Assembly: GCA_005191425.1 (NCBI GenBank)
Contig: SUPR01000003.1
Span: 30,001-62,000 of the forward strand
Direction of reading: 5' to 3'
DNA: 32,000 nucleotides
Origin: Candidatus Helarchaeota ASGARD archaeon Hel_GB_B
GTDB lineage: Archaea > Asgardarchaeota > Lokiarchaeia > Helarchaeales > HEL-GB-B
Positions 17,960 through 32,000 of this stretch are shown here, one piece after another. The notes beneath the pieces are model-generated. The model made no database searches, was not told where the DNA came from, and saw only the letters and a program-made list of their open reading frames with translations. Both the position numbers and the translations under genes were made by a program. Every line of letters begins with the position of its first letter. Position 1 is the first letter of the stretch.

Positions 17960-19357
17960 ATGTCTAATAAACTTATTGTTATTGGTTTAGATTGTGCTGT
18001 CCCTGATTTAGTTTTCAATAAATTCATTAATGACCTACCAAATTTAAGATATTTAATTGACCATGGCATTTCAGCTCCTATGCGGTCGTCTGACCCACCA
18101 ATTACTATTCCTGCATGGTTGATTATGTGTACTGGTGTTGATGCAGGATTTCTTGGACTTTATGGTTTTAGACATCGTTTAAATAATTCATATACAGACA
18201 TCTGGATAGCTAATACTCAAAAGGTAAAAATGCAGAAGGTATGGGATATTTTAGGCGACTTCGGATTAAAAAGCTGTCTAATAGGTATTCCCCCATCTTA
18301 TCCAATTAAAAGAAATGAAGGATGGACAATTTCTTGTTTTATTACCCCCGATACAACAAAGCAATATACTCATCCAAAAGAGTTGAAACAAGAAATTGAA
18401 GCATTAGTCGGCGAATATATGTTCGACGTTGAATTCAGGACTGATTTAAAGGACAAATTGATAAAAGGCTTATTTGAAATGACTAAAAGGAGACATAAGG
18501 TGATCAAATATCTTTTAAAAGAAAAACCTTGGGACTTTTTCATGTTTGTGGAGATAGGACTTGATAGAGTTCAACACGCGTTTTGGAAATTTTTTGACGA
18601 AAAACACATTAGACATAAACCTGGTAAATATTCTAAAGTAATTCCGGACTATTATCGCCTGTTGGACAAACAAATAGGTGAAATTCTTGATTTAATAGAT
18701 GATGATACAAAAGTTTTAGTAGTATCCGACCATGGTGGAAAAGCAATGAGTGGGTGCTTCTGTATAAATGAATGGTTGATAAAAGAAGGCTACTTAGTAC
18801 TAAGAAATTACCCACAGAAAATGACCCGTCTCGAAGAATGTGATATTGATTGGAGTAAGACTAAAGCTTGGGGCTGGGGCGGATATTATGCAAGGATATT
18901 TTTCAACGTTAAAGGTAGAGAGCCACAAGGTATTATTGATCCGGAAAATCTAGAGCAAGAAAAAATGGAATTGATTGAAAAAATTATGCAGATAAAAGAC
19001 CCTAATGGTCGAATAATGAAAAATAAAGTCTACGAGCCTAAAGATTTATACAAAATAGTTAAGGGCGATCCTCCCGACCTAATGGTCTATTTTGATGATT
19101 TATATTGGCGTTCCGCTGGGACTATTGGTCATAATAAATTATTTTTAGAAGAAAATGATACTGGACCCGATGACTTAGTCCATGATTATTATGGAATTTT
19201 TATCCTATATGACCCCAAAATTAAGAAAAAAATACGTCTCGATAATGTTTCAATATTTGATATATCTCCTACAATCTTAAATATCTTTGATTTAGATGTC
19301 CCCGGATACATGAAGGGAAACATAATAGGTTATGGGAAAAATAATGGTCAAGTATAA
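17960..19357 (+). CDS. Alkaline-phosphatase-superfamily (nucleotide pyrophosphatase/phosphodiesterase-like) enzyme
   Basis: VIGLDC metal site, PPITIPAW (Thr nucleophile position), DRVQHAFW, VVSDHG and final SIFDISPTIL. Confidence 0.9.
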   Translation: MSNKLIVIGLDCAVPDLVFNKFINDLPNLRYLIDHGISAPMRSSDPPITIPAWLIMCTGVDAGFLGLYGFRHRLNNSYTDIWIANTQKVKMQKVWDILGDFGLKSCLIGIPPSYPIKRNEGWTISCFITPDTTKQYTHPKELKQEIEALVGEYMFDVEFRTDLKDKLIKGLFEMTKRRHKVIKYLLKEKPWDFFMFVEIGLDRVQHAFWKFFDEKHIRHKPGKYSKVIPDYYRLLDKQIGEILDLIDDDTKVLVVSDHGGKAMSGCFCINEWLIKEGYLVLRNYPQKMTRLEECDIDWSKTKAWGWGGYYARIFFNVKGREPQGIIDPENLEQEKMELIEKIMQIKDPNGRIMKNKVYEPKDLYKIVKGDPPDLMVYFDDLYWRSAGTIGHNKLFLEENDTGPDDLVHDYYGIFILYDPKIKKKIRLDNVSIFDISPTILNIFDLDVPGYMKGNIIGYGKNNGQV

Positions 19358-22546: not shown

Positions 22547-23092
22547 CTAATCTCCTTTATCATTAGATTTAAATAATTTCATTATTCCTATTTTATTAAA
22601 AATCTTCTTAATTGCATTTTTATCAAAAGGACTTACTTCTGGTAATCCTAAATCTTCTCTTTCTTCTTCTTGGAAATCAGTAACTTCAATAGCCCTTCCA
22701 TTTTCATAAATTGCTGCTGTGAATAACTTAATACTTTTCGGATATAATCCATGTGATGTAGCAATATTCTTTAAACCAAAAAAAATATCAGTAATTTTAA
22801 CATTCTGAGGGCATCGTTCTTGACAAATATAACATGTCAAACATAACCATATCGCATTACAATTAATTACTTTATTTATTAATGATAATGAAATCATCTG
22901 CATTATTTGATGTGGCATTAGATCAAAAGCATTAGAAATTGGACAAGAGGCAGTACATGTTGTACATTGAAAACAGTATTTTAAACTTTTAATATCAATA
23001 TCTGGTAATTTAAAAAGTTTCTCTTTAAATTCTAAATCTGTTGCGCCCAAATCAAATATTTCATTTGTTGTTATTTCAATATTTCTTACCAA
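22547..23092 (-). CDS. hdrC: Heterodisulfide reductase subunit C
   Basis: CFQCTTCTASCP and WLCLTCYICQERCPQ.V. TTG start. Confidence 0.95.
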   Translation of the reverse strand: MVRNIEITTNEIFDLGATDLEFKEKLFKLPDIDIKSLKYCFQCTTCTASCPISNAFDLMPHQIMQMISLSLINKVINCNAIWLCLTCYICQERCPQNVKITDIFFGLKNIATSHGLYPKSIKLFTAAIYENGRAIEVTDFQEEEREDLGLPEVSPFDKNAIKKIFNKIGIMKLFKSNDKGD

Positions 23093-23129
23093 TTTGATTC
23101 AAATCCCAAAAAATTTAGATTTATTTAGA
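22857..23129. repeat. Direct repeat copy 1 (~270 bp): intact 5' half of hdrC plus a remnant of the 3' end of the 747-aa ferredoxin gene
   Basis: 22890-22932 matches 24525-24567 at 42/43 nt. 23054-23078 is identical to 24687-24711. The remnant reads LNKSKFFGI* against the real LNKFEFLGS*. Confidence 0.92.
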
Positions 23130-26975: not shown

Positions 26976-29142
26976 TTTTTAATTTAAATTTTGGTAATTT
27001 ATCGAATTCATTTATTCTTTTTACAAAATCTTTAATTTTCAAGTATAATTTATTATTATCAGCTGCAAATGAAGTAAAGAATTCTATTCTATTTTTTTCC
27101 CAACCAATTGCCTCTAATATTTCCTTAGCAGCTTCTATTTGCATTTTTGCTTTAGAATTTCCATCAATATAATGGCATTTACCTTCATCACAAGCAATTA
27201 AAAAAACGCCATTAGCTCCTTCGTTAAAACATTTAAGAATATCTAATAATGACAATCTGCCACCACATGGTAAACGAATTAACCTGATATTATCTGAATA
27301 GCTTTTTCTTAATAATCCAAGCATATCTACCGAGGCATATGCACATTCATTACATACAAATCCTAGAATAATTGGTTTTTCAAATGTATGGGAATCTTTT
27401 AAAATAGATTCTATTTGAGCAAAAATCTCTTTGGGAGAATAATTATTTAATTTTGCTGCTCCAGTTGGGCAAACTGCATTACAAACTCCACATCCACGAC
27501 AAGAATATGGATCAATTAAAGCAAGGTATCTTACATCAGTTGAAGTTTCATTTTCCTTTTGTACCATATATGGGACTGAAAACGGGCATATCCTAACGCA
27601 TAGTTCACAGCCATTGCATAGTTCAGGATCTACAATCGTAAAATTCTGAGTATTAAAGATTTCAGGGAATTCAAATAATTTAATTATTTCCATCGACACT
27701 GAGTTTGCTTCTTTTAATGTTTCATCAATTAATTTAGGGCCCAAAACTGTTCCGCACGCAAAAATTCCATTTCGTGAAGTTTCAATATTATTTTGTTTTG
27801 GATATTTTCCTTGAATAAATCCTTTATTCCATGTTTTAATATTGATTTGATTTAATAACTTTATATTCTCCTTATTAGGGATAATTGCTGTGGATAAAAC
27901 AATTAAATCTGGATGAATTATTAAGACTTTTTGTAATAATGAGTCGTAAATTGTTACTGACAACTTATTCTGTATTTTTTCAATTTTTCCCAATTCTCCT
28001 CTTATAAAATTTATTCCTAAAGACCTGGCTTTTTGATAATCATATTCTGCTTTCCAAGGTGTCCTAATATCTATGTAAAGAATTGTAATTTCAAATTTTG
28101 GGAAATTGTTAAGAATTTCAATAGAATAATTAATAGCTGTTATACAACAATATTTACTACAATAATCATAATACTTTTTATTTCTTGAACCAACACATTG
28201 GACTATTAAAATTCGCTTTTTTAACTTGTTATCGCTAAATATTTTCATTAAATCTTTATCAGCATTATTTATATTATGATTTTTTAAAAAATTAAAAAAT
28301 TCTCCTAACTCAGATAAGGTAATTACATTTTTTTCTTCATCATATTTGTAAAAATCATTTAATTTTGGCCGAAAAATATCATGGCCCGTGGCTAATACTA
28401 GAACGGACGCATTTAATGTTTTTTCATTTAATTTATTATCGTGTTCTACGATTTTAACGGTATAATTCCCCAAATTTCCTATTATCCATTCAACATTCCA
28501 ATTAGTTAATATTCTAATTTTTTGAAAGTTTAATGATTTTACAATTTTTTCTATGAAATCTTTTCCTGATGTATTATATGGATGAATAAATGGTAATTTA
28601 TTGATAAATCCACCCAAGTAATTTTCTTTTTCTATAATTGTTATTTCATAACCAAGATCTTGTAAATTTTTTGCTATCTGTAATCCTGCTATTCCCCCCC
28701 CAATAATAACTAACTTCTTTTCTAATTCTTTGACCTCATTTGTTTTATATTCTTTAGTAAATAATTTATCAATGTGCGATTTTATTAATATTGTAGCCTT
28801 GTAAGTAGCTTTATTAGATTCATGAACCCAAGCACATTGTTCGCGTATATTTGCGACTTCAAATAAGATATTTTGTAGATTATATTTTTTTAACTCAAGC
28901 TTAAGTTTCATTTCTATTATCTGTGGTGTACAACCTCCAAATACAATACCTTTAATATTTTTTGTTTCCAAGATTTTAATTAGTTTTTGAAATCCTTCAG
29001 TTGAGCATAAATGGTCAAAAATATAGATGGAAGAGAGGGGAAATTCTTTTTTTAAATCAGATTCTATTAATTTAAAATTTAATTCCATTGTATTTCCGCA
29101 AGTACAAAGGCAAATTAAAACTTGATCTTGGTTAAGAAATAT
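26968..29142 (-). CDS. hdrA: HdrA-like flavoprotein fused to a C-terminal MvhD domain (QmoB-like architecture)
   Basis: N-terminal domain (GGCTP, ANIREQCAWVH), IIGGGIAG FAD site, VQCVGSR..YCSKYCC, GIFACG, ferredoxin CNGCELCVRICP / CRGCGVCNAVCP, and MvhD part FVCNECAY...RLPCGG...ACDEGKCHY. The first ATG is at 29088, but the conserved VLICLCTCG motif lies upstream in frame, so I extended the start to the ATA at 29142 (uncertain). Confidence 0.9.
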   Translation of the reverse strand: MFLNQDQVLICLCTCGNTMELNFKLIESDLKKEFPLSSIYIFDHLCSTEGFQKLIKILETKNIKGIVFGGCTPQIIEMKLKLELKKYNLQNILFEVANIREQCAWVHESNKATYKATILIKSHIDKLFTKEYKTNEVKELEKKLVIIGGGIAGLQIAKNLQDLGYEITIIEKENYLGGFINKLPFIHPYNTSGKDFIEKIVKSLNFQKIRILTNWNVEWIIGNLGNYTVKIVEHDNKLNEKTLNASVLVLATGHDIFRPKLNDFYKYDEEKNVITLSELGEFFNFLKNHNINNADKDLMKIFSDNKLKKRILIVQCVGSRNKKYYDYCSKYCCITAINYSIEILNNFPKFEITILYIDIRTPWKAEYDYQKARSLGINFIRGELGKIEKIQNKLSVTIYDSLLQKVLIIHPDLIVLSTAIIPNKENIKLLNQINIKTWNKGFIQGKYPKQNNIETSRNGIFACGTVLGPKLIDETLKEANSVSMEIIKLFEFPEIFNTQNFTIVDPELCNGCELCVRICPFSVPYMVQKENETSTDVRYLALIDPYSCRGCGVCNAVCPTGAAKLNNYSPKEIFAQIESILKDSHTFEKPIILGFVCNECAYASVDMLGLLRKSYSDNIRLIRLPCGGRLSLLDILKCFNEGANGVFLIACDEGKCHYIDGNSKAKMQIEAAKEILEAIGWEKNRIEFFTSFAADNNKLYLKIKDFVKRINEFDKLPKFKLKSE

Positions 29143-30478
29143 TATCCCTCCTAAAATTGTTAATTTCTTTAAAAATTTTTAGTGCAATACTTTTTGAAGA
29201 TGTTATTGTATCAACAATATCCATTGGACTTATAACAGACCCACAAGCATAAATTCCTTCTATATTGGTGGTAATTTGATCTTCTTTTACATTAATAAAA
29301 CCTTCAGAAGTTAATTCTAAATTTAATTTTCTGGATAATTCTATACTATCCTTAGACATAATAATTGCTGTACTTAATACTAATAAATCAGCTTGAATAA
29401 TAAGTACCGCATTCAATAGAGCATCATATATTTTTAAAGTTAATTTATTATCATTTTCTTTATTTTCTGATTGTTTAATATCTATTAATCTTCCCTTGAT
29501 AAATTTCACATCATTTTCTCGAGCTTGGGTATAATATTTTTCTAAAAACCCCATTGTCCTAATATCTATGTAAACGATATAAACTTCAGGGGGTGGGTCA
29601 TAATTTTCTTTTAGTATTTTTGCATTTTTGATAGCATATTCACAACAAAGTACACTACAATATCTATTATATTTTTCATCTCTAGACCCTACACATTGCA
29701 CTATAACTATTGATTTAACTTCTTTTTGATTTGATGGACGTATTAATTTTCCTTGAGTTGGTCCGTTTGGGTCTATCATTAATACTAATTGATATTGTGT
29801 TATTACATCTTTATATATTCCATATTTGTAGTCGTTCATTAATTTTGGGATATATTCATCAAAACCTGTTGCTAATATTATATCTGCACATGAAATATTT
29901 ATATGGATGTCTTTTTCGTTTAGATTAATTGCATTGACCGGACATGATTTTTCACATAAATTACACCCAAATTTGCATTTATCTTGATTAATAATAAAAT
30001 AGTTAGATATACATTGTGGATAATGGCTTGATATAATCGGAAGATCTGGATTTCCTTTAAAAACCTCATTTAAATCGTTAATTTTTGGGCACACTACTAA
30101 ACATTTTCCACAATTAATACAATCTTGGTTAACATATGTAGCGTGTTTTATTAATTTAATTTTAAAATTTCCTTTTTTACCAGAGCAAGATTCAAGTTCT
30201 GTATTATTAAGTAGAACAATATTTGGATGAAAATTTATCCCAGATCGATAAAAGCATTTTCTTATGCCATCCTTATATTTGGTGGAAAGGAGACAAAAAA
30301 AACAATCATCTGTGGGAAATGCTTTATAGAGGTGGCCGGCATGCCCTCCAAAAAAGGGTTTTTTCTCAATTAAGTATATTTTAAAACCCAAATCTGCCAA
30401 TTGTATTGCCATATTTAGGCCAGCAATACCGCCACCAAAAATACTTATCGTTTTTTCTGTTTCCAAATTTTTACTCAT
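29132..30478 (-). CDS. hdrA: HdrA-like flavoprotein lacking the N-terminal and C-terminal ferredoxin domains (QmoA-like length, with inserted ferredoxin)
   Basis: IFGGGIAG, KAFPTDDCFFC, CINCGKCLVVCP, CKFGCNLCEKSCP, ILATGF, VQCVGSRD..YCSVLCC, DIRT.G and GIYACG...P.DI. Confidence 0.92.
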   Translation of the reverse strand: MSKNLETEKTISIFGGGIAGLNMAIQLADLGFKIYLIEKKPFFGGHAGHLYKAFPTDDCFFCLLSTKYKDGIRKCFYRSGINFHPNIVLLNNTELESCSGKKGNFKIKLIKHATYVNQDCINCGKCLVVCPKINDLNEVFKGNPDLPIISSHYPQCISNYFIINQDKCKFGCNLCEKSCPVNAINLNEKDIHINISCADIILATGFDEYIPKLMNDYKYGIYKDVITQYQLVLMIDPNGPTQGKLIRPSNQKEVKSIVIVQCVGSRDEKYNRYCSVLCCEYAIKNAKILKENYDPPPEVYIVYIDIRTMGFLEKYYTQARENDVKFIKGRLIDIKQSENKENDNKLTLKIYDALLNAVLIIQADLLVLSTAIIMSKDSIELSRKLNLELTSEGFINVKEDQITTNIEGIYACGSVISPMDIVDTITSSKSIALKIFKEINNFRRDNIS

Positions 30479-30776
30479 CTTTTACATACCAATGATGTTT
30501 TAATCGTAATTTATATATTTCAAATTCCAAATTTGTTAATTCATTTTGTAGGGCTTTTATTTCAATATTAAATTTCTCTTGGGATATTTCTCCAATTTGC
30601 TTTTGGACGACCAAATTCTTTAATTCTAATTGTTTTAATTTTATTGATTTTTTAATCTCTTCAAATTTATCTCTATTTTCTGAGATTATTTGTTTCCATT
30701 TATTACTAGATTTGTTTGTCTTATCTAATTGGTCGATAATTTCCATTAATTTTTTTCTTTTTTCTTCATCAATCAC
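30471..30776 (-). CDS. Small coiled-coil hypothetical protein (101 aa)
   Basis: GTG start; overlaps hdrA by 8 nt. The QIGEISQEKF..EIKAL...L motif resembles SHOCT/CdvA-type coiled-coil ends. Confidence 0.7.
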   Translation of the reverse strand: MIDEEKRKKLMEIIDQLDKTNKSSNKWKQIISENRDKFEEIKKSIKLKQLELKNLVVQKQIGEISQEKFNIEIKALQNELTNLEFEIYKLRLKHHWYVKDE

Positions 30777-30811
30777 TTTTCAAACAACTTTATATTATTT
30801 CTACACACTAT

Positions 30812-30880
30812 AATCGATCCCTGTGCAAGGGTGTCCTATTCAGAGCAGCTCTTTAAGTCTGAACAGTCATTCTATCGATT
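30812..30880 (-). promoter_or_regulatory. Eukaryote-type (Lokiarchaeota-like) SECIS element
   Basis: Minus strand: AAUCGAU-AGA-AUGA-CUGUUCAGA-CUUAAAGAGCUGC-UCUGAAUAG-GA-CA-CCCU(UGCAC)AGGG-AUCGAUU. It shows an AUGA/GA core, a 9-bp helix II (one G-U), AAA in the apical loop and a 7-bp helix I, directly after a UGA-containing vhuD. Confidence 0.88.
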
Positions 30881-31307
30881 TTTGCTTTTTTAATGGGTTA
30901 AGTCCCATTTTTTCCACATCTGCTGCGACTTTTTCAATGATATCTTTCAGTTTGTCAGCTTCGGCAGCTGATACAAAATGCATTTGTACCCGGTCTTCAT
31001 TAATTCCAATGTCTTTCAATAATTCTCTAACAAATTTAACTCGTCTGGCGCATGCTAAATTCCCTACTTTATATTCGCAATCTCCGGGATGTCAACCAAC
31101 GCTAATCACTGCATCTGCGCCATCTACTAGTCCCCGTAAGATGTGATTGACATCTACTCGACCTGTACATGGTAACCTAAGAATTCTTACTATCGGATTA
31201 TATTGTAGCTTAAGAGTCCCTGCTAAATCTGCAGCAGAATAGGAACACCTCATACATGCAAACATTAATACGACAGGTTGTTGCTCTTTAATTTTACATC
31301 ACTCCAT
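30867..31307 (-). CDS. vhuD: Selenocysteine-containing MvhD/VhuD (hydrogenase/Hdr 2Fe-2S delta subunit), 146 codons; absent from the ORF track
   Basis: Hand translation: ME(U)CKIKEQQPVVLMFACMRCSYSAADLAGTLKLQYNPIVRILRLPCTGRVDVNHILRGLVDGADAVISVG(U)HPGDCEYKVGNLACARRVKFVRELLKDIGINEDRVQMHFVSAAEADKLKDIIEKVAADVEKMGLNPLKKQKSIE*. TGA at 31094-31092 (codon 72) sits at a conserved Cys/Sec ligand position and family similarity continues past it. Confidence 0.95.
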
Positions 31308-32000
31308 TTAATTATTTTCTTTTAAAATTGCATCTATTTGATTTAATATTTGGACATCTTTCCACCATCTTAAATCTCGAGCTCCAATTGGACAAGATGC
31401 TACACAGATCCCACATCCTTTACATTTCATTTCATCTGTTGTTGAAATCATTTTAAAAGGGCTAATATCTTTAATTGATATTGCATCATATGGACATACA
31501 ACTTCACATAGACCACATCCAACGCATTTTTCTATATCAACATCAGCTCTGATCATCTCAATTTCGATTCCTTTATGTTTAATTGCTGAAATACTTGCTG
31601 CCCCACGGGCAAGTGCAATGGTATCTGAAATATCTTTTGGAAAGGTAGACGCAGTATAAATTCCTGGAACTTTTGTCTCAACAGGTTTAAATTTTAAGTG
31701 AAGTTCTTCGATAAACCCATCTTCCGATCTAGTGATACCAAGTATTTTGCATAAATTTTCTATATCATCTGGTGCTTCTTGTCCAACAGCTAAAATCACA
31801 TAATCTATTTTTAATTCTAATTCTTTTTTTAATAATGTATCAAATATTTTTACTATAATCTTATCAGAATCTATTGCTTTGCTAACTTTTGGTGGAAAAT
31901 TCGGTTCCCACCTTATATAATTGACTCCCATTAATTGAGATGTGATATAATTTTCTTCCATATATCTACCAAATGCCCTAATAGATTCTTTATAAAGTAC
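31308..32000 (-). CDS. hdrA: Heterodisulfide reductase subunit A, C-terminal part (5'-truncated by the window edge)
   Basis: Frame open to the window end (VLYKESIRAFGRYMEENY, the LY.DIR..G motif). Also DYVILAVG, DGFIEELHLKFKPVET.VPGIY, PKDISDT, CVGCGLCEVVCPY and CKGCGICVASCP. Confidence 0.95.
   Translation of the reverse strand, partial: VLYKESIRAFGRYMEENYITSQLMGVNYIRWEPNFPPKVSKAIDSDKIIVKIFDTLLKKELELKIDYVILAVGQEAPDDIENLCKILGITRSEDGFIEELHLKFKPVETKVPGIYTASTFPKDISDTIALARGAASISAIKHKGIEIEMIRADVDIEKCVGCGLCEVVCPYDAISIKDISPFKMISTTDEMKCKGCGICVASCPIGARDLRWWKDVQILNQIDAILKENN

Follow-up and report, generated by a model that had tools for sequence, protein, structure and literature searches.

Selenocysteine or ribosome-binding site: the question at the 5' end of vhuD

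The window analysed here, a 32,000-nucleotide stretch of an Asgard archaeal contig, carries on its minus strand a vhuD/mvhD gene in front of which an ATG is followed by GAG, an in-frame TGA and TGT. This arrangement raises the question of whether translation begins at the ATG and reads the TGA as a second selenocysteine (Sec), or whether the TGA belongs to a ribosome-binding site and translation begins downstream of it at a codon that is not a canonical start. A preliminary description of the locus had put forward the first reading (M-E-U-C, as a redox motif or a selenium gate) and named the second, with GGAGTGA as a Shine-Dalgarno (SD) sequence and ATT as the start, as its competitor. Taken together, the comparisons below make it very probable that vhuD is translated from the AUU at 31292, led by the SD sequence, as a 141-residue MvhD protein with a single Sec at codon 67. 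The ATG-GAG-TGA-TGT run is most likely a chance by-product of the ribosome-binding site and not a second Sec.

Structure of the locus and of the predicted VhuD protein

All features described here lie on the minus strand, where the letters on which both readings depend (ATG 31307, GAG TGA TGT, GGAGTGA, ATT 31292 and the adjoining HdrA stop) were confirmed. The gene upstream of vhuD encodes a 1024-aa double-HdrA module with zero in-frame TGA codons (contig C118, 61308-64382; window 31308 to beyond 32000), and its TAA stop (31310-31308) adjoins the ATG (31307-31305) to form UAAAUG. This ATG is the sole in-frame ATG, GTG or TTG between the upstream stop and the conserved N-terminal strand of VhuD; with GAG and the TGA (31301-31299) it makes up a mini-ORF of two codons in the vhuD frame (31299-31307), which we judged incidental and which is followed by TGT (31298-31296) and AAA. 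The mini-ORF overlaps the SD sequence GGAGTGAT (31298-31305, with its core GTGAT at 31302-31298), in which GGAGTGA occupies 31305-31299. Next comes the ATT (31292-31290), which aligns with the starts of most orthologues and is regarded here as the putative initiation codon; after it the frame reads AAA GAG CAA CAA CCT GTC GTA TTA ATG TTT GCA TGT, the conserved strand that ends in FAC. The strand itself thus contains an ATG (Met10, 31263-31265), which the preliminary description had not weighed and whose role as a start is rejected below. Counted from the ATT, the coding sequence (30867-31292) has 141 codons and a TGA stop (30869-30867).

The 141-aa product matches the Pfam family PF02662 (MvhD/FlpD) with 147.4 bits (cut-off 22.3; E 2.5e-43); with the ATT as codon 1, profile positions 1-123 of 123 fall on residues 8-130, and the conserved positions of the family are present: C13 and C16 of the N-terminal CxxC, C42 (PCTG), U67 (G-C/U-H) and C72 (GDC). 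It is collinear with the solved chains 7bkb_F, 9sfi_K and 5odc_D of the PDB. Solved MvhD chains are 134-141 aa long, and from their residues 2-5 onward they align to VhuD from residues 2-6 through to the end; the alignments to 7bkb_F and 9sfi_K cover residues 4-138 and 5-135. The window VhuD shares family, length and the Sec at G-U/C-H with the methanogen MvhD/VhuD proteins (5odc_D, 7bkb_F and the Sec-containing 9sfi_K), whereas VhuD of the Methanococcales type has a second Sec in an N-terminal CxxU, where the window protein has Cys, its Sec being a single one.

Selenocysteine 67 and the lokiSECIS element

A whole-genome search of relatives yielded the congener (L002, 81% identical) and five orthologues of the same order (L003-L007, 57-71%), and a metagenome scan added only two more (L062 and L063). 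At codon 67, which is TGA in the window (31092-31094, in G-U-H-x-G-D-C), seven of the nine orthologues have TGA and two (L003 and L006) have Cys, and the Sec-containing chain 9sfi_K has its X at the aligned position; the true Sec of the gene is, by prediction, this codon. A lokiSECIS-type element (30819-30870) begins at the end of the gene and folds with an AUGA whose UGA is the vhuD stop, a 9-bp stem, a 13-nt loop, a GAC and a side hairpin. The same layout was found in all TGA-bearing orthologues, with stem sequences that differ by group and with pairing kept, and it is absent from the two Cys orthologues (L003 and L006); this comparison was made on sequences read by eye, as MAFFT with RNAalifold put two SECIS groups out of register. 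An Rfam search of 30600-31400 at a permissive E-value gave no match to a SECIS model and one meaningless lncRNA match.

The features of lokiSECIS elements, among them an AUGA that also supplies the stop codon, have been described from Lokiarchaeota (Mariotti et al. 2016, PMC4989117), where a single element was proposed to serve UGA codons of the HdrA-VhuD message as far as ~2 kb upstream of it. The window resembles these HdrA-VhuD tandems in having HdrA upstream on the same strand, a very short spacer, an HdrA stop other than UGA, and an AUGA-led SECIS with a 9-bp stem at the VhuD stop; it differs from them in its HdrA, a 1024-aa double module without Sec, in its SECIS loop of 13 nt instead of 11, and in the ATT start of its VhuD (PMC4989117). 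Because the upstream HdrA has no Sec codon, the SECIS element would serve codon 67 of vhuD alone within the HdrA-VhuD pair.

As to the Sec machinery, SepSecS was found in the genome (E 1.2e-113), and no tRNA-Sec scored above the cut-off in the 94%-complete assembly, in which ARAGORN, run without intron search, reported 8 tRNAs only. Three vhuD paralogues of the genome (L036, L038 and L039, on contigs C167, C26 and C41) each contain two in-frame TGA codons, one in CxxU and one in G-U, the classical Sec positions, neither of which is near the N-terminus.

Downstream of vhuD lies a 101-aa ORF (30471-30776, minus strand) without a Pfam match, whose charged, repetitive sequence has a coiled-coil appearance; the congener (L002, 2017-2325) and both Cys orthologues (L003, L006) have similar ORFs downstream of vhuD.

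Comparison of orthologous 5' ends

The nine orthologous 5' ends were anchored at the first Cys codon. In eight of them the start codons line up at one position, with ATT in the congener as in the window, ATG in L004 and L006, GTG in L062, and TTG in L005, L063 and L007. The ninth (L003) starts with an ATG four codons earlier than the aligned position. The ATT of the window therefore matches, codon for codon, the canonical starts of six orthologues as well as the ATT of the congener, and every orthologue start is preceded by a purine-rich ribosome-binding site. Only the two genomes of the genus have ATT as such, which is therefore conserved within a single close pair.

In the congener, 46 nt separate the end of the HdrA gene from this region, which reads TAA-AAG-AAG-TGA-TCC-GAA-ATT, with a stop two codons before the TGA and with Ser (TCC) replacing the Cys codon (TGT). 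The congener contains no ATG, GTG or TTG from its in-frame TGA up to the codon for the first Cys; it has TTA at the position of ATG 31265, and its next ATG comes after the first Cys ligand. When the two sequences were aligned pairwise, AGTGAT and AAATTAA alone stood out upstream of the coding part, the rest, spacer included, being diverged, and from the ATT onward the differences were synonymous or conservative. The AGTGAT block and the ATT were thus both kept while the ATG..TGA..TGT arrangement is absent, so this arrangement looks like chance. In the other orthologues the HdrA-vhuD spacers measure 1-11 nt and contain no mini-ORF, and a set of 42 further loci with an MvhD domain, taken from this genome and its class, showed no Cys or Sec in the short stretch before the first strand.

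The ribosome-binding site and its in-frame TGA

Since the 16S gene is missing from this assembly and from that of the congener, the 3' tail of the 16S rRNA (GGATCACCTCCT) was read from two relatives of the same order. The duplex of GGAGTGAT with this tail before ATT 31292 has an energy of -9.8 kcal/mol, which places it in the top 5% of the ATG starts of the genome (1132 starts; median -4.0, 5th percentile -9.7 kcal/mol), and before the ATT of the congener the value is -13.3 kcal/mol. The five-mers of GGAGGTGAT, plus AGTGA, are 4.5- to 5.9-fold enriched upstream of first canonical starts in this genome, and starts most often lie 4-7 nt from the A of GGTGA; the aligned spacing at the ATT is 6 nt, the modal value.

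A GTGA core at a spacing of 6 nt necessarily has its TGA in frame with the start. Such in-frame TGA codons from the SD core also occur at several other SD-led genes of this genome, and the paralogue L039 (contig C41) reads TAA-ATG-TGA-ATT-AAA, with a start and a stop inside the SD sequence, before its true ATG; the in-frame TGA can therefore be regarded as a routine by-product of the SD sequence. The mini-ORFs of the window and of L039 both follow from an AT dinucleotide before a G-rich SD core in a genome of 28% GC. This constitutes a recurring trap, because an SD sequence of the GGTGA type at 6-nt spacing always puts a TGA in frame two codons ahead of the start, and in an organism that uses Sec this TGA may be misread as encoding Sec.

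On the model that we favour, the small ribosomal subunit would bind GGAGUGAU (31305-31298) through the 3' tail of the 16S rRNA, and this binding would bring the AUU, which lies six bases further 3', into the P site, for the initiator tRNA to read as Met despite the mismatch at the third position. The product would be the 141-residue MvhD with one Sec, inserted at codon 67 with the help of the lokiSECIS element that begins at the stop codon. The UGA at 31301-31299 would be the GUGA core of the ribosome-binding site, and the flanking AUG and UGU would be incidental. We infer both the initiation at the AUU and the N-terminal Met from sequence comparison.

The competing reading in the preliminary description, GGAGTGA as an SD sequence with the start at ATT 31292, is accordingly the one upheld, by the alignment of starts, the strength and spacing of the SD sequence, the congener, the collinearity with solved MvhD proteins and the near-cognate starts found elsewhere in the genome. 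The vhuD model to be annotated is 31292-30867 with Met1 at the ATT and Sec67, a gene on which gene callers err twice, at the ATT start and at the Sec codon.

Alternative starts

Were the internal AUG 31265 used instead, the protein would begin M-F-A-C and be shortened by the first half of the N-terminal strand. No canonical start lies between the in-frame TGA and this AUG, which is the one picked by gene callers and costs only two positions of the Pfam profile. We consider it quite improbable, however, because this AUG has no SD sequence (-2.7 kcal/mol), its position is not a start codon in the congener, and all orthologues and solved structures have a longer N-terminus. In addition, the nine codons 5' of it, with three synonymous and four conservative changes relative to the congener, evolve as coding sequence.

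AUG 31307 abuts the HdrA stop in a layout that favours reinitiation, and some ribosomes may start there. Ribosomes leaving HdrA might then translate M-E, stop at the UGA and reinitiate at the AUU six bases on, in which case the mini-ORF would feed or throttle the AUU. The geometry permits this, and L039 shows a similar start-stop inside its SD sequence, but the mini-ORF is unconserved, neither the 46-nt spacer of the congener (without ATG) nor the spacers of the other orthologues containing one, and we hold such a coupling to be unlikely to a similarly marked degree.

The start at AUG 31307 that the preliminary description proposed, coupled to HdrA, with the UGA of codon 3 read as Sec and an M-E-U-C-K extension acting as a redox motif or selenium gate, has hardly any probability left. 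In its favour are the position of the AUG directly after the HdrA stop and the distance of this UGA from the SECIS element, ~430 nt, which on the model of action up to ~2 kb upstream (PMC4989117) would make it recodable. Against it, the congener has no ATG there, a TAA two codons before the TGA and TCC instead of TGT; the seven other orthologues all start downstream of this position, at canonical codons and with no Cys or Sec there; the 42 further MvhD loci agree in lacking Cys or Sec before the strand; AUG 31307 has no SD sequence (-0.1 kcal/mol); the extension has no counterpart in solved MvhD proteins; and, with Sec already at codon 67, a selenium gate would be superfluous. The alignment of orthologous 5' ends, which had been named beforehand as the place to look for UGA/Cys exchange at codon 3, revealed no exchange; instead, the orthologues keep a purine-rich SD sequence and a downstream start, with no Cys, the outcome by which the preliminary description had itself proposed to reject the Sec reading.

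A conserved second Sec, or a vicinal Sec-Cys pair, at the N-terminus of VhuD is refuted, as no orthologue has an upstream start or a Cys there; the apparent second Sec and selenium gate are thereby removed as a new motif. That a minor VhuD isoform with M-E-U-C-K is made in this one species, by reinitiation after HdrA and with the distant lokiSECIS, beside the main AUU product, is exceedingly unlikely.

Near-cognate starts across the genome

Start at an AUU is known from the bacterial genes infC and pcnB of E. coli, both initiated behind a Shine-Dalgarno site. The vhuD gene shares with them the near-cognate AUU at a normal distance from a good SD sequence, the lack of a usable canonical start, and a position fixed by homologues; it differs from them in that its host is an archaeon with initiation of the aIF1/aIF2 type. 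Unlike infC and pcnB, vhuD would need no autoregulation to account for its start, because many near-cognate starts occur in the genome.

The latter statement derives from a genome-wide test on long open frames, in which codons five or more positions 5' of the first canonical start were scored for an exact SD five-mer at a spacing of 4-7. Near-cognate codons had such a five-mer at twice the frequency of other codons (OR 2.1, p 4e-6), whereas a control spacing of 12-23 gave no such enrichment (OR 0.84); for codons no more than six from the upstream stop the OR was 2.8. Twenty candidates were checked against Pfam, and in seven of them the domain begins at or beside the near-cognate codon, far 5' of the first canonical start.

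In these seven cases the Pfam domains start 26-160 codons before the first canonical start, beside an SD-led ACG, ATA, ATT or ATC. They comprise the FolD catalytic domain (L042, contig C45; profile position 1 on residue 4; 82 codons to the first canonical start; ACG or ATA), the DKCLD domain of Cbf5 (L048, C99; from residue 6; 108 codons; ATT), the editing domain of ThrRS (L057, C126; from residue 2; 93 codons; ATT), a GH2 N-terminal domain (L050, C19; from residue 3; 160 codons; ATC), the TIR domain of a TIR-LRR protein (L047, C73; from residue 7; 77 codons; ATT), a small GTPase (L043, C178; from residue 13; 30 codons; ATC) and a DNA methylase (L052, C96; from residue 20; 68 codons; ATA).

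The sole aIF1 (SUI1) gene of the genome (L067; contig C107, 21861, minus strand) has an ATA start four bases after GGTGAT, its first canonical codon being 34 codons downstream, inside the SUI1 domain. Near-cognate starts are, as predicted from these sequences, common in this genome, and the ATT of vhuD is ordinary there: vhuD would be a further case of a genome-wide habit that includes aIF1, the proofreader of start codons. A literature search brought up no publication that describes near-cognate starts for Asgard archaea.

Several further frames bear on start-codon usage in this genome. A GTG that is first in frame has an SD five-mer at the right spacing in only 2.1% of cases, compared with 10.5% for ATG and 7.4% for TTG, and genuine GTG starts may thus be rare in this genome (28% GC). 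A Sec-free MvhD paralogue (L032; contig C122, ~19300-19345) lacks a canonical start ahead of its first strand and reads AAGGTGAT, then CTG at spacing 6, then ATA. Within the window, the gene for a 706-aa HdrA-MvhD fusion (minus strand) has its CxCxCG motif 5' of the first ATG (29088), and in the region 29131-29150 its frame opens with ATA-ATA (29145-29140) right after AGGAGGG, at a spacing shorter than the genome norm, which suggests another non-canonical start; this may be the ATA case in the same operon to which the preliminary description had referred. Finally, in the region 23086-23101 (minus strand) the hdrC frame opens with TGA-ATC-AAA-TTG, its start being either the TTG at 23092 or the ATC two codons earlier.
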